Assembly: GCA_964365185.1 (NCBI GenBank)
Contig: CAYIOP010000003.1
Coordinates: forward strand, 40,828-104,827
DNA length: 64,000 bases
Reading direction: 5' to 3'
From: an uncultured Candidatus Saccharibacteria bacterium
Lineage (GTDB): Bacteria; Patescibacteriota; Minisyncoccia; UBA6257; 2-01-FULL-56-20
A model generated the notes under the pieces. That model was not told the origin of the DNA, did no database searches, and saw only the letters and a program-made list of their open reading frames with translations. Of this stretch, positions 155 through 57,490 are shown in pieces. A program made the translations under genes and the position numbers. Position 1 is the stretch's first letter, and every line of letters begins with the position of its first letter.

Positions 155-718
155 CTAGGGTGTTGTATAAGTTATTACCCCAAAAGACGAAACTGAAATT
201 GTTGACGAAACCGACTGGTTGTTTACTAAATAAATCGCTACGCTACTTGTCTCAATGGCGTTAGATACATTTCTAAGTTCTCCTACAACTTCTGAAAAAG
301 AAATCGCCCGGAAACATTTTTCAGGCCCCGGCGGATCAGTCCAACCAGCCCAAGTTGTCGATTCATTATAATCAATCGCAGCCGGCAAAGTATTCCTATA
401 AGCAATTTTTCCCGGGTAATAGTAACCGTCATTAGTAAAATAAATTCCGTAATTAGACCATCTGCTTGATCCGCCGCACATTTTCCTCTCAAAAAATACC
501 CCCCAAGTAGTTTCTTTCTCCCAAGCCACTGCCCTATCTCGCGCGTTATTCAAAGAAAAAACAATGTTTTCCACCGAAGTATCAAATTTTTTCCGAACAT
601 TCTGGCTAAAAAAATTAACCATAATTACCGCCGTGATGACCGCGATAAGCGACACCACCACTAAAAACTCAATCAAAGTAAAACCCTCTCTCCGAGAATT
701 CCTCATCTCACTAATCAT
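155..718 (-). CDS. prepilin-type N-terminal cleavage/methylation domain protein (minor pilin/pseudopilin)
   Basis: N-terminus contains GFTLIEFLVVVSLIAV, a type IV prepilin motif followed by a hydrophobic helix; it lies in the pilus locus. Confidence 0.6.
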   Translation of the reverse strand: MISEMRNSRREGFTLIEFLVVVSLIAVITAVIMVNFFSQNVRKKFDTSVENIVFSLNNARDRAVAWEKETTWGVFFERKMCGGSSRWSNYGIYFTNDGYYYPGKIAYRNTLPAAIDYNESTTWAGWTDPPGPEKCFRAISFSEVVGELRNVSNAIETSSVAIYLVNNQSVSSTISVSSFGVITYTTP

Positions 719-14183: not shown

Positions 14184-15005
14184 TTATGTAACATTGAAAT
14201 TCCCAAAATCAGGGCTGGAACCAACTTGAACCCCGGTTAATGTTTTTTCTTGAGCAGTAATCTCCTCGGCCAAATTTTTATAAGCTAAAGCACCGATCGA
14301 ATCAGGCCGATAAAGCATGACTGGTTTTGAAAAACTAGGGGCCTCTGCCAAAGCCACGCTCCTTGGAATCTCGGTCTTAAAAACTAAATAAGGAAAATTG
14401 GTTCTTAGGTCCCTTGCCACTTCACGACTCAAACGTTCATTGCGATTATACATAGTAATTAAAGCTCCTGTAATTTTAATTTTATGATCCAAATTACCTT
14501 TAATTAAATCAATAGTTTGAAGAAGCTGCCCTAAGCCCTCTAAACTGTAATATTCAGCCTGAACCGGAATCAAAACCTCGCTCGAGGCCATCAAGCCATT
14601 CACCGTAAGCAAACTAAGCGACGGCGGCAAATCAATCAAAATATAATCGTAGCTATGCCGAACTCGATTTATAAATTTTCTCAAAAAATATTCTCGCTCC
14701 GGCAAATTTACCAATTCAATGAGCGCTCCGGCTAAATGCGGCGCGGCTGGCACTAAATGAAAATTAAAAAGCGCTGTCGGACGCAAAATATAATCATGCG
14801 GCGCGGCATTAATAATGCCGTGATAAACACTAAGTTCAGTTTTTAAAGGATCGTATCCCAAAGCCGAACTGGCATTAGCTTGAGGGTCAAAATCAACCAA
14901 AAGCACTCTTCTATTTAATGCGGCTAAATAACTTCCTAAATTTACGGCTGTGGTAGTTTTTCCAACCCCGCCTTTTTGATTACAAATTGAAATCACCCTG
15001 GCCAT
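14184..15005 (-). CDS. parA: chromosome partitioning ATPase ParA/Soj
   Basis: Deviant Walker A motif KGGVGKTTTAVNLG at the N-terminus. Confidence 0.9.
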   Translation of the reverse strand: MARVISICNQKGGVGKTTTAVNLGSYLAALNRRVLLVDFDPQANASSALGYDPLKTELSVYHGIINAAPHDYILRPTALFNFHLVPAAPHLAGALIELVNLPEREYFLRKFINRVRHSYDYILIDLPPSLSLLTVNGLMASSEVLIPVQAEYYSLEGLGQLLQTIDLIKGNLDHKIKITGALITMYNRNERLSREVARDLRTNFPYLVFKTEIPRSVALAEAPSFSKPVMLYRPDSIGALAYKNLAEEITAQEKTLTGVQVGSSPDFGNFNVT

Positions 15006-15106
15006 TTCGCTTTACTCTACCTTATTTTTGAATTATTATCAATCATAAATTAGGGGCGAGTGGCGGCCCGTCAACCAACGGGAGCAGATTTACCCGTACT
15101 AATTTT

Positions 15107-15188
15107 GCCGCTGTGGCGGAACTGGTAGACGCGCACGACTCAAAATCGTGTGAGGAAACTCGTGTCGGTTCGACTCCGACCAGCGGCA
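15107..15188 (+). tRNA. tRNA-Leu (anticodon CAA)
   Basis: Class II tRNA: acceptor GCCGCTG/CAGCGGC, anticodon arm CACGA-CTCAAAA-TCGTG, long variable arm, T-arm GTCGG-TTCGACT-CCGAC. Confidence 0.8.
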
Positions 15189-15289
15189 CTCTTTAAATGG
15201 AGACTCCCTGCCCCGTTAAATTACGAAGTAATTTTTTCGGGGTCTCCTCGCCCACAAACAAAATTAGCCCGACTAAAAATCGAGCTAAT

Positions 15290-15430
15290 TTTGTTTTATG
15301 ATGCTAAAGAATCGAACTGGAGTGGGGTCGGGAGAACATCTGGTCTCCCGTGTTGGAATGAGCGGAGTGGATTCAAAACCGAGGGTTTTGAACGAATCCC
15401 GCAATGCGAGGCGACGTGAGATTCCCGCCC
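15290..15430 (+). ncRNA. candidate structured small RNA ('element A') co-transcribed with tRNA-Leu; family unknown
   Basis: GC-rich and hairpin-dense in an AT-rich genome: a terminal helix GGGGTCGGG/CCCGCCCC, internal hairpins CGGGAGA..TCTCCCG and GGATTCAAAACC..GGTTTTGAACGAATCC, and a 3' block GACGTGAGATTC. It is homologous to the element at 57163-57268 and is followed by a hairpin/T-run at 15451-15486. Confidence 0.3.
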
Positions 15431-15450
15431 CGGCCAACCATATATATATT

Positions 15451-15486
15451 AAAAAACTCGCTATTTTCTAAACAACGAGTTTTTAA
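15451..15486. terminator. hairpin with flanking A/T runs (bidirectional terminator-like)
   Basis: AAAAACTCG-ctattttctaaacaa-CGAGTTTTT lies at the end of the tRNA-Leu/element A unit and abuts the stop of the minus-strand ORF at 15483. Confidence 0.35.
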
Positions 15487-15731
15487 TTTCCTCTCTTGGT
15501 TTCAAAAAAATCTTCCATCTCTTCTGTAAAAGAAGAATCGCTGATTTTCTCTTTCTGAGGGCTAAACTCTGCTTCAAAACTGAAAATTCCAAAAAAACAA
15601 CTTACTGAAACTTTGTCTATCTCAGAAGCCGAAATATCACGCAGCACTCTCTCTACTAAACCGATAAAATGCCGGTTAACCACAAAAACCGCCATCCCTA
15701 AAACCAAGAAAAAAGCTATTATATAAAGCAC
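15483..15731 (-). CDS. hypothetical small membrane protein
   Basis: 82-aa ORF with an N-terminal transmembrane helix and an acidic tail. Confidence 0.35.
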   Translation of the reverse strand: MLYIIAFFLVLGMAVFVVNRHFIGLVERVLRDISASEIDKVSVSCFFGIFSFEAEFSPQKEKISDSSFTEEMEDFFETKRGN

Positions 15732-15822
15732 TATTCACCTCACTAATTACTATCAAAAGACCAAACTAAAAATACTCTAAATCACCGCTAAGTCAACCCC
15801 TGAACTAATAATTAGTAAGGGG

Positions 15823-56911: not shown

Positions 56912-56969
56912 AAAATTTCAGAGGTGCTCTCTTGATTATTTAACTCGTGCCTCCTAAAATAACTGCATC

Positions 56970-57051: not shown

Positions 57052-57122
57052 CGGGCCGGAGTATGGGGGTAGTACGCCTGTTTTGGGAACAGGTAGACCG
57101 AGTTCGACTCTCGGCGGCCCGA
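57052..57122 (+). tRNA. tRNA-Pro (anticodon TGG)
   Basis: Acceptor CGGGCCG/CGGCCCG, anticodon arm CCTGT-TTTGGGA-ACAGG, T-arm CCGAG-TTCGACT-CTCGG, discriminator A. Confidence 0.65.
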
Positions 57123-57162
57123 CAACAATTTAACTTTTTATTCGCCGAGAGTCGGACTCGGA

Positions 57163-57268
57163 AAGGGGTCGGGGAAACGGAAGTTTCCCCGAGGCGAAGC
57201 TCACGAACCGCTGGGTTCGTGGGAGTCCCGCTTTGATGGGACGACGTGAGATTCTCGGCGGCCCGACA
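57163..57268 (+). ncRNA. candidate structured small RNA ('element B'), homologous to element A at 15290-15430 and embedded between tRNA-Pro and a duplicate of its 3' end
   Basis: GGGGTCGGGG + hairpin CGGGGAAAC-ggaa-GTTTCCCCG, a 10-bp hairpin CTCACGAACC/GGTTCGTGGGAG, GTCCC-gctttgat-GGGAC, then GACGTGAGATTC and CTCGGCGGCCCGACAA, which is identical to the last 16 nt of tRNA-Pro plus AA. A terminator follows at 57277-57307. Confidence 0.35.
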
Positions 57269-57276
57269 AAAATAAT

Positions 57277-57307
57277 AGCAGACGAAACTGGGAATTTCGT
57301 CTGCTTT
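57277..57307 (+). terminator. rho-independent terminator after the tRNA-Phe/tRNA-Pro/element B unit
   Basis: 11-bp stem AGCAGACGAAA / TTTCGTCTGCT with loop CTGGGAA, followed by TTGAAAT. Confidence 0.5.
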
Positions 57308-57490
57308 GAAATGAACACAAGATCTAACAAATTGGTTGTTAGGAGTTGTGTTCGCGCCCGGTCTTAAGGGCGCGGTAATTCAGTAAAAGGTGGGTAGAAA
57401 AAGTTCAAATACCCCGCTAATTTAATCATAAATCTAACCCAAAAATTGCCAAATCCAAGTTATCCACCTAATATATAAAAAAGTAAAAGC

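Follow-up and report, generated by a model that had tools for sequence, protein, structure and literature searches.

Two copies of an uncatalogued family of folded elements, each ~130 nucleotides (nt) long and situated just 3' of a transfer RNA (tRNA) gene, lie in a 64-kilobase (kb) stretch of DNA from an uncultured Candidatus Saccharibacteria bacterium (GenBank assembly GCA_964365185.1, contig CAYIOP010000003.1, positions 40,828 to 104,827 of the forward strand; the whole stretch of 64,000 nt is called the window below). In the sample analysed here, the family is restricted to bacteria of the candidate phyla radiation (CPR). Element A is located behind tRNA-Leu(CAA) and element B behind tRNA-Pro(UGG). 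The conserved core of the element is usually enclosed by two arms that copy the neighbouring tRNA from T-loop to 3' end, one inverted and the other direct, a feature that an earlier sequence-only reading of this DNA had overlooked. That reading had proposed an undescribed RNA family linked to tRNAs, and the proposal is partly borne out by CPR homologues with compensatory stem changes and tight tRNA linkage. No description of the element or its arm arrangement was found in the searchable literature, literal conserved sequences included. The interpretation preferred here, with a probability of roughly 0.45, is that the element is an RNA that would be made by read-through from the tRNA promoter and would spread as a cassette with arms matched to the tRNA.

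The family was first gathered by two exact anchors, using a pattern scan for GGGTCGGG-N55-85-GACGTGAGATTC over 185,579 species-representative genomes, and the locus sample is biased to element-bearing sites. The scan yielded 64 loci, of which ~46 from CPR/Patescibacteria display the whole architecture; the other 18, from unrelated phyla, have only the two anchors in common with the family. A covariance model (R1) was built from 48 copies and run on the window and the collected loci, a check that the sequence-only reading had suggested for related CPR genomes. It returned 60 copies with covarying stems and no match in the 18 non-CPR loci. Within the window, the model identified A (15287-15446, 98.9 bits) and B (57127-57276, 111.7 bits) and no third copy. 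Since exact anchors guided this first collection, GGGUCGGG and GACGUGAGAUUC owe part of their invariance to the scan itself, and the anchors can vary in copies found by the covariance model. Copies are encoded by Saccharibacteria, Parcubacteria/Paceibacterota, Liptonbacteria, Colwellbacteria, Moraniibacteria and Minisyncoccia, while labels of metagenome-assembled genomes (MAGs) such as 'Oligoflexia' or 'Bdellovibrionales' may be binning errors. Viral contigs scanned with the family pattern gave no matches. The window itself is ordinary CPR chromosome carrying gyrA/B, topA, ftsK, clpB, PNPase, S1 and parAB.

In general, the core consists of GGAAAG-GGGUC, a first hairpin (hp1), GUGNNGGAA, a second hairpin (hp2), GGAG, an optional third hairpin (hp3) and CGAC-GUGAGAU, in that order, and is predicted to adopt a three- or four-way-junction fold. 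Standard pairs fill 86% of the cells in the model-based alignment, as opposed to 78% in column shuffles, and 16 pairs are altered on both sides, with slid-partner controls paired in 31-57%. Hairpin hp1 is paired in 97.6% of cells, eight of its nine pairs covary, and its loops are mostly of the GNRA type (GGGA, GGAA, GUGA and GAUA). Counted from the loop outward, the inner four pairs of hp2 are invariant, and pairs 5-9 each show two to five canonical types. Hairpin hp3 varies from nothing (GGAG-CGAAG-CGAC) to ~25 nt, frequently containing a GCGAAGC mini-hairpin, and some copies have extra hairpins between GGAA and hp2. On the tRNA strand, the wobbles of hp1 amount to 18 G:U versus about one A:C. 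The plus strand is considered the folded strand because G:U wobbles fit the tRNA strand only, and a gene on the minus strand was rejected for the same reason.

Outside the hairpins, a nine-position helix interrupted by two tandem G.A mismatches is possible between GAAUCGAAC and GUGAGAUUC, and the closing helix of the family comprises the 5' arm (GAAUCGAAC and upstream bases) with GUGAGAUUC and the tail. In many minimum-energy folds, the GUC of GGGUC and the GAC of CGAC close the junction, a pairing beyond the covariation test because the bases never vary; the GGGGUC/GAUUCC helix drawn by RNAalifold is also made of invariant bases and hence gives no covariation signal. The terminal helix assigned by the sequence-only reading, GGGGUCGGG/CCCGCCCC, can be formed in A and finds no support in the family. 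Pairing of GGGGTCGGG with CCCGCCCC is not a family feature because GGGGUC is invariant and its partner is the variable tRNA-derived tail. The homology of A and B, claimed earlier, is evident from the identical blocks GGGGTCGGG and CGACGTGAGATTC and from hairpins that differ by compensatory changes. Fold z-scores are -5.2 for B, -2.1 for A alone and -4.7 for tRNA and A together. Core identity is up to 83% between Saccharibacteria and Parcubacteria-type copies and tracks neither genome nor tRNA: the value is 83% for B with one Saccharibacteria copy and 77-78% for A with copies located elsewhere behind tRNA-Ala and tRNA-Met.

The linkage to tRNA genes is tight. A same-strand tRNA lies 15-260 nt upstream in 36 pattern-found CPR copies, covering 25 anticodons and 18 amino-acid identities, and the additional model matches are likewise situated just downstream of a same-strand tRNA gene. 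The tail of the element (X), which follows GUGAGAU, itself read as a disabled T-loop, copies the tRNA from ~position 60 to N73/74 and thus comprises the gene's T-stem, acceptor 3' strand and discriminator in the sense orientation. At least 11 of 12 positions are identical in 26 of 37 loci, and the identity between tail and tRNA is ~100% over 14 nt, then ~0.5 and 0.3, reaching background within a few bases. The 5' arm (X') is the antisense of positions ~53-66, including the T-loop, the T-stem 3' strand and between one and four bases of the acceptor. This arm was detected behind 31 tRNAs with cargo and behind none of 36 tRNAs without cargo. Where tRNA base 59 is not U, X' follows the tRNA in 14 of 18 loci and pairs with the tail's constant U59 in two; X' is hence regarded as the antisense of the tRNA itself, because the arm follows the tRNA's N59. 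An intrinsic-terminator-like hairpin usually separates the tRNA from X', which lengthens this hairpin into a long quasi-palindrome. The hairpin of this kind at A, termed T1, has analogues in ~30 loci, most family members, and no hairpin is present between tRNA and element at some loci, including B, L041, L020 and L014.

Comparison of loci reveals how closely the arms follow their gene. Locus L065 (82% S1 identity; 63 bits) has the same order of S1, tRNA-Phe, tRNA-Pro and element as the window and shares B's unusual A after hp1, and its tRNA-Pro acceptor 3' strand reads CACTCCG versus CGGCCCG in the window, with the tail altered in step. One MAG carries copies behind tRNA-Arg(UCU), tRNA-Leu(UAA) and a transfer-messenger RNA (tmRNA), nearly identical in the 3' two-thirds of the core. 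Two of these copies, at L012 and L026, also have ~50 nt beyond the tail in common, with compensatory changes in the hairpin there, and each 13-nt tail matches its own upstream gene. Because these two loci share the downstream flank, the tail represents a locally matched internal segment and not a mere edge duplication, which weakens a simple target-site duplication at the element's edge. In L012:7727-8000 (minus strand), the element is placed behind an apparent tmRNA 3' end (…GACGAGGGTTCGATTCCCTCCGTCTCCACAA) and its tail matches with one mismatch, suggesting that tmRNA genes are used like tRNAs.

Some loci depart from this pattern in informative ways. A true T-loop replaces GUGAGAUUC in L027 (GTTCGATTC) and in L035 and L065 (GTTCGCTTC), and such tails would fit occasional longer conversion tracts from the tRNA. 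Partial tRNA 3' copies, which start in the anticodon stem or T-arm and reach the 3' end, are located between the complete tRNA and the element in L027:5214-5300, L003, L010 and L016; in L010 and L016, the tail is matched by the partial copy and not by the complete upstream tRNA. Reverse transcription of the tail from a mature tRNA gained no support from a CCA test, as CCA occurs in the tail in 4 of 27 loci where the gene is without it and is absent in both loci where the gene has it. Among 29 CPR tRNA genes, two encode CCA, and N73-C-A is common, as in the tails (e.g., 15188-15191 and 57123-57126). A duplication that also includes the trailer or terminator is true of a few loci only (L005, L029, L002, L037 and L055), and mimicry of an acceptor/T minihelix for RNase P or RNase Z is weakened by X' seldom pairing beyond position ~66.

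B is a canonical copy coupled to tRNA-Pro(UGG). Its tail belongs to a direct repeat (D1; 57106-57129 and 57250-57273) with 92% identity over 24 nt, and its 5' arm to an inverted repeat (I1, also I5; 57143-57161 and the tRNA-Pro T-arm at 57098-57116) of 19 nt with 95% complementarity. Between the hairpin of B and tRNA-Val(UAC), an 18-nt imperfect inverted repeat, GAACACAAGATCTAACAA/TTGTTAGGAGTTGTGTTC, occupies 57313-57353. The features of both loci are compiled in Table 1.

Table 1 Features of the element A and element B loci, in positions of the window
Feature	Positions	Strand	Basis or remark
tRNA-Leu(CAA)	15107-15189	+	ARAGORN; Rfam tRNA, 58.6 bits; upstream of A, not cognate
Hairpin GGAGAC(TCCCTG)CCCCG...CGGGGTCTCC (GGAGAC...GTCTCC), then TCGCCCACA	15199-15247	+	Sequence reading, fold
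Terminator-like T1 hairpin CAAAATTAGC...GCTAATTTTG (15259-15293) and TTTTAT	15259-15299	+	Sequence reading, fold
5' arm X' of A, GAAUCGAAC, antisense T-loop	15309-15317	+	Family alignment
Joiner UGGAGUG and invariant GGGUC	15318-15329	+	Family alignments
hp1 of A, CGGGAGA/UCUCCCG, 8-nt loop	15329-15350	+	Fold
Joiner UGUUGGAA (family consensus GUGNNGGAA) and 10-nt insert	15351-15368	+	Family alignments
hp2 of A, GGAUUCAAAACC-GAG-GGUUUUGAACGAAUCC (strands GGATTCAAAACC/GGTTTTGAACGAATCC)	15369-15399	+	Fold
hp3 of A, short, variable, CGCAAUGCG(AGG)	15400-15411	+	Family alignment, fold
Conserved 3' block of A, CGAC-GUGAGAU	15412-15422	+	Alignment; block CGACGTGAGATTC is 15412-15424
Tail X of A, UCCCGCCCCGGCCA	15423-15436	+	Form: T-stem 3' strand, acceptor 3' strand, discriminator
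A/T-rich hairpin 3' of A	15451-15485	+	Stem of 9-10 base pairs (bp), 16-nt loop; overlaps convergent open reading frame (ORF)
tRNA-Pro(UGG), cognate of B	57052-57123	+	ARAGORN, Rfam
5' arm X' of B, CGCCGAGAGUCGGAC	57143-57157	+	Inverted copy: tRNA-Pro T-loop, T-stem 3' strand, 3 acceptor nt
Core of B, UCGGAAAG-GGGUC start, joiner AGGCGAAG	57158-57252	+	Fold, model
hp1 of B (loop GGAA)	57170-57191	+	Fold
hp2 of B	57200-57225	+	Fold
hp3 of B	57226-57241	+	Fold
3' block of B, CGAC-GUGAGAU	57242-57252	+	
Tail X of B, UCUCGGCGGCCCGACA	57253-57268	+	Exact direct copy of tRNA-Pro 3' end
Terminator-like hairpin 3' of B	57277-57305	+	Formally called on minus strand

At the A locus, the hairpin stack and the compact module noticed after tRNA-Leu were confirmed by reading the sequence. 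The parts of the module stand as described, and their positions had been placed 5-13 nt off, GGGGTCGGG being at 15324-15332 and not 15319-15327, and CCCGCCCC at 15424-15431 and not 15411-15418. The supposed coupling of A to tRNA-Leu(CAA), on the other hand, does not hold. The 3' end of this tRNA, CGACCAGCGGCA, does not match the tail of A, and L090, a relative with 85% ParA identity and the same synteny, has an identical tRNA-Leu(CAA) followed by 17 nt and then the end of a PAP2 gene. Because L090, whose 267-kb contig also bears the locus of the 82% S1 relative, is without the whole of 15190-15822 (~630 bp), this stretch is extra DNA and L090 provides an empty site for A. A is therefore an orphan copy carried in a ~630-bp insertion behind tRNA-Leu(CAA). 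Of its 5' arm, only the T-loop part is retained, and its GUGAGAUUC (15416-15424) is T-loop-like with positions 55-56 altered. The tail of A appears to derive from a different tRNA. By inference from its sequence, it resembles the tRNA-Met tail of L037, and the cognate is probably a tRNA-Met ending in ...CCCGCCCCGGCCA. Co-transcription of A with tRNA-Leu would need read-through, because the terminator-like T1 hairpin and its T-run intervene. A closing terminator had also been proposed at 15451-15485, but the consensus terminator scan did not call this hairpin, which is A/T-rich and shared with the convergent ORF; it is possibly a weak bidirectional terminator.

The insertion also contains an 82-amino-acid (aa) minus-strand ORF (15483-15731) beside two hairpins and A. 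The segment 15199-15258, with GGAGACTCCCTGCCCCG, a small hairpin, CGGGGTCTCC and then TCGCCCACA, resembles a decayed T-loop-type arm pair with a tRNA-Leu-like tail remnant and could represent an earlier unit that has since eroded. At the tRNA-Leu(CAA) spot, other relatives have unrelated ORFs (L091) or a large serine recombinase gene (L092). The latter, at L092:827-2338, encodes 503 aa with Resolvase, Recombinase and Zn-ribbon domains and overlaps the 3' side of tRNA-Leu(CAA), which suggests that this tRNA is an integration hotspot in the lineage.

Presence of the element varies among relatives. Relatives with 72% S1 identity (L066 and L067) have tRNA-Pro(UGG) without the element, and orphan copies besides A are present in L047, L051, L024, L006, L023 and L034. 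Tandem arrays occur in L005, L045 and L050, and copy density is two in the 64-kb window and up to three within 8 kb elsewhere. A circularly permuted core was observed at L005:4661-4803 (minus strand) behind tRNA-Pro(CGG) and at L071:~205-350 (plus strand) behind tRNA-Ser(UGA). It has the order CCCCCG-UGUUGGAA-AAUA-GGAG-(hp3)-CGACGU-hairpin-AAGY-GGGGGUC-GGGGG-...-GUGAGAUUC-tail, with the arms attached where hp1 would stand and the P1 site capped by a hairpin. A scan of metagenomes for the permuted form gave 21 matches, one genuine (L071) and 20 by chance in G+C-rich coding DNA.

Neither are the arms confined to the family core. At L033:880-1044, tRNA-Gly(GCC) is followed by a terminator hairpin, an inverted T-loop arm (GTAGGAGAATCGAA), a cargo and a direct copy (GGATTCTCCCTGCCCGCACA). 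This cargo is ~95 nt long, G+C-rich and unrelated to the family core, and because such arms enclose unrelated cargo, tRNA-derived arms are not tied to one core. Arm-like sequences, GGAATTGAATCGGAAG, GAGGAATCGAAG, CTTGAATCGGAAGG and GAGTCGAAGGAGAATCC, are found 40-70 nt past the tails of L055, L014, L002 and L038, and their sequences are hints of further units that may be tandem, degenerate or loaded with a different cargo.

Comparison with catalogued families did not identify the element. At gathering thresholds, Rfam 15 (4227 models) returned only tRNAs and one unrelated LOOT RNA in the window and 18 loci, and at E<=10 nothing in 15000-15600 overlapped the core except a 13.9-bit chance match to SNORD75, in agreement with the earlier statement that A could be matched to none of the tmRNA, RNase P RNA, SRP RNA or 6S RNA motifs. 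The LOOT RNA (RF03000, 66.8 bits) is located at L047:1622-1761 on a Patescibacteria contig. ARAGORN and RF00005 found only the upstream tRNAs and no tRNA or pseudo-tRNA in the element, which bears sense positions ~60-73 only and has the T-stem 5' strand replaced by CGACG. ARAGORN was also negative for tmRNA in the window, the Rfam tmRNA clan gave no match, and, unlike tmRNA, the element is present in many copies per genome, each mimicking a different tRNA. Known self-cleaving ribozymes were rejected, as Rfam gave no match and the joiner UGNNGGAA is without the invariant A6/G8 spacing in a manual comparison with the hammerhead; by Rfam and manual comparison, the core sequences do not fit the hammerhead, twister, hatchet, pistol, hepatitis delta virus (HDV) or hairpin ribozymes. 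The element is not only an intrinsic terminator, since the core has three to four helices with conserved joiners and separate terminator-like hairpins flank it. A T-box or riboswitch leader was dismissed because the elements stand 3' of tRNAs, with hairpins, convergent genes or more tRNAs coming after them. Gene callers set spurious ORFs on the element, for example 15150-15419, which the sequence-only reading had rightly discounted: the frame is not conserved, homologue indels are not multiples of three, stem changes are paired and the ORF overlaps the tRNA. A gene called at this place in L089 has no Pfam match.

Known mobile elements were compared in the same manner. With regard to att remnants at tRNA genes, a tRNA 3' direct repeat is present, but what lies between the repeats is, in 60 copies, a conserved fold of 100 nt, and no adjacent integrase was seen in the loci inspected. 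Insertion of the casposon or transposon type would agree with the ~14-nt identity block, yet inspection revealed no element-borne terminal repeats and no autonomous relative was found. In the case of integron attC sites, the T-loop boxes are one mismatch off, but they stand beside the cargo (X'-core-X) or are reversed (X-T1-X'), and no intI context was seen at element loci. With regard to miniature inverted-repeat transposable elements, the units are short, multicopy and variably present, but their inverted repeats come from the local tRNA and selection on structure acts on the interior. Among the ORFs of the window, the nine largest are all housekeeping genes without reverse transcriptase, integrase or transposase domains.

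In the preferred interpretation, transcription of the unit would follow the tRNA strand and start mostly at the tRNA promoter, by read-through. Read-through is proposed because no promoter-like site is present between tRNA-Pro and B, the sole such site upstream (56932-56960) lying before tRNA-Phe, and because several loci have no intervening hairpin. The arms X' and X, which do pair, would zip into a closing stem, thereby sequestering the anti-tRNA arm and presenting the core. Presence, absence and tandem arrays are observed directly, and the unit may accordingly multiply beside tRNA genes as a cassette that is gained and lost. The arms track the local tRNA, and either templated conversion or selection could keep them matched to it; mutations are known to arise through conversion between direct repeats and through correction of quasi-palindromes. 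As for its activity, the core might be a ribozyme, a platform for protein binding or a structure recognised during mobility. Several points weigh against this interpretation. Folded DNA, too, can contain G.T wobbles, loops of the GNRA type and the very stable GCGAAGC mini-hairpin, and the intrinsic-terminator-like hairpin between tRNA and element would limit read-through at many loci. No mobility enzyme was identified, none being encoded by the nine largest window ORFs, and no insertion mechanism is known that would leave the target copied in inverted as well as direct orientation. The core identity of up to 83% across lineages would fit a host function equally well. Finally, folds of the whole co-transcript favour X' paired with the tRNA's own 3' half, a pairing that would be expected to harm the tRNA unless kinetics or processing prevent it.

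A more far-reaching formulation, which we consider rather speculative, would describe programmable 'tRNA-tail cassettes', that is, a folded core of RNA or single-stranded DNA (ssDNA) inserted behind, and sequence-matched to, any tRNA or tmRNA gene. The T-loop, which is universally conserved, would serve as the entry point, the 3' end of the target would be copied both ways, and the mechanism of mobility or tRNA coupling would have neither a described enzyme nor a precedent and could be catalysed or guided by the core. It is also conceivable, albeit unlikely, that the element is an ssDNA recombination cassette with a core of folded DNA, in which the X-hairpin-X' palindrome and the X'-core-X fold, formed in ssDNA, would imitate the gene's duplex T-arm and 3' end and a host tyrosine or serine recombinase directed at tRNA genes could insert or excise the unit, much as at integron attC sites or the attP(+) hairpin of CTX phage. 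The X-T1-X' arrangement is indeed a long quasi-palindrome, with good pairing of T-loop/T-stem and trailer and frequent mismatches in its acceptor portion, recalling the unpaired central regions of folded att sites, and the strand-specific wobble pattern fits a single folded DNA strand. In addition, X is the repeat common to tandem arrays, the GCGAAGC mini-hairpin is frequent in hp3, and a large serine recombinase gene abuts tRNA-Leu(CAA) in L092. The T-loop sequence GTTCGAT/ATCGAAC is one base off the integron core sites, GTTRRRY and RYYYAAC, yet these core-site-like boxes stand at the wrong hairpin ends for attC geometry. Moreover, no integrase was seen consistently beside the elements, a cassette entering by crossover in the T-loop would have to supply every one of more than 20 different tRNAs with its proper 3' end, and conserved joiners rich in purines, like GNRA loops, are found more typically in tertiary folds of RNA.

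The preference of X' for the tRNA over the tail (14 of 18 loci) could instead point to a host-beneficial, cis-acting accessory RNA of the tRNA, in which X' and X compete with the tRNA 3' half and control or report folding, 3' maturation or read-through; a tRNA isoform with the core at its elbow would be a variant of this explanation, which we likewise judge unlikely. The tail equals the tRNA through the discriminator even without X' pairing and even where both flanks are conserved between paralogues, and it changes in concert with the acceptor stem of tRNA-Pro. In global minimum-energy folds, the 5' acceptor strand of the tRNA pairs with the tail, as X1 does with X', and the core is strongly conserved across CPR classes. 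Such a role is difficult to combine with orphans that have no adjacent tRNA (A, L047, L051 and L024), with 36 of 84 tRNAs in the sampled loci being without the element, as are relatives at the same tRNA, and with the common upstream terminator hairpin, while tandem arrays and unrelated cargo between the same arms look more cassette-like. Ends joined by a 9-13 bp stem of tRNA sequence, different cargos with the same arms and a circular permutation typical of compact ribozyme folds would all be compatible with a gene for a trans-acting small RNA or ribozyme. Here, the tRNA-like clamp would be a processing signal for RNase P, RNase Z or RNase III, cleavage of the tRNA-derived stem freeing the core from the tRNA transcript, as with tRNA-linked small nucleolar RNAs, mascRNA and processing stalks of ribosomal RNA (rRNA). 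This explanation seems improbable, as X' rarely pairs with acceptor positions 67-72 and the stem is not a true acceptor/T minihelix, no known ribozyme was matched in Rfam, and the match of the arms to the neighbouring tRNA would be left unexplained. Decayed att-site debris of integrase insertions, or a chance hairpin-rich spacer or terminator, is hardly credible. Islands that integrate at tRNA genes classically leave direct repeats of the tRNA 3' end, and the region behind tRNA-Leu(CAA) is variable among relatives, but sixty copies with a conserved core and compensatory stem changes across CPR classes contradict this origin, the units are only ~130-250 bp without an integrase, and the inverted copy always accompanies cargo.

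CPR bacteria have tiny genomes of ~1 Mb, and many copies of the element are kept in spite of this. The core identity shared across lineages points to strong selection or active spread, and the arms offer a rare testable handle, since the element follows the sequence of the neighbouring tRNA in both orientations when the tRNA changes. An explanation could reveal a new route of site-specific insertion at tRNA genes, new tRNA-linked RNA biology in organisms not yet genetically tractable, or a new ribozyme or protein-binding fold with a core that tolerates circular permutation.

A conserved fold between inverted and direct copies of a neighbour's 3' end is present in none of the systems compared, although each shares some features with the element. 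Small ribozymes such as hammerhead types I-III and twister resemble it in having a compact multi-helix junction, conserved joiners, GNRA loops, natural circular permutation and repeated, possibly mobile units, yet the core fits none of the hammerhead, twister, hatchet, pistol, HDV or hairpin models. R2 (with an HDV-like ribozyme, in 28S rRNA genes), Dada (in genes for tRNA or small nuclear RNA) and short interspersed nuclear elements likewise exploit a highly expressed RNA gene as a safe haven, with co-transcription and a structured RNA; they are all eukaryotic, whereas the element has inverted and direct target-derived arms and no known reverse transcriptase or transposase partner. What integron attC sites and the attP(+) hairpin of CTX phage have in common with it is conservation of structure and not sequence, wobbles on one strand, a cassette-like nature and possible mimicry of a duplex target. 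In the element, however, the core-site-like boxes are misplaced, the arms come from the local tRNA, and no link to IntI or Xer emerged.

Closer parallels exist at the DNA and RNA levels. Family-2 casposons duplicate 14 bp of their target within the 3'-distal portion of tRNA genes (PMC4779613). Like casposons and tyrosine-integrase islands with their attL and attR sites, the element shows a direct repeat of the tRNA 3' end (~14 nt here), an intact tRNA, arrays and variable presence. Unlike these integrating elements, it is only ~130-250 bp long, carries neither an integrase nor Cas1, lacks its own terminal inverted repeats, adds an inverted copy of the target, can hold the repeat internally and has a conserved structured nucleic acid as cargo. 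Among orphan structured RNAs, GOLLD and ROOL often adjoin tRNAs (PMC5737381) and are possibly co-transcribed with them. Together with LOOT, they differ from the element in being much larger, having no tRNA-derived arms, giving no sequence or model match and covering another taxonomic range. The tRNA-like domain of tmRNA, YrlA Y RNAs and viral tRNA-like structures also reuse T-loop and acceptor sequence, and the 3' end of the element is likewise a tRNA 3' end. The element, in contrast, has no complete acceptor stem or T-arm, has positions 55-56 altered, follows no CCA or tag logic, and mimics its own neighbouring tRNA in each copy. Duplication of tRNA 3' ends by integrating elements is the nearest analogy at the DNA level, and RNAs of the GOLLD/ROOL type and tRNA mimics are the nearest at the RNA level.

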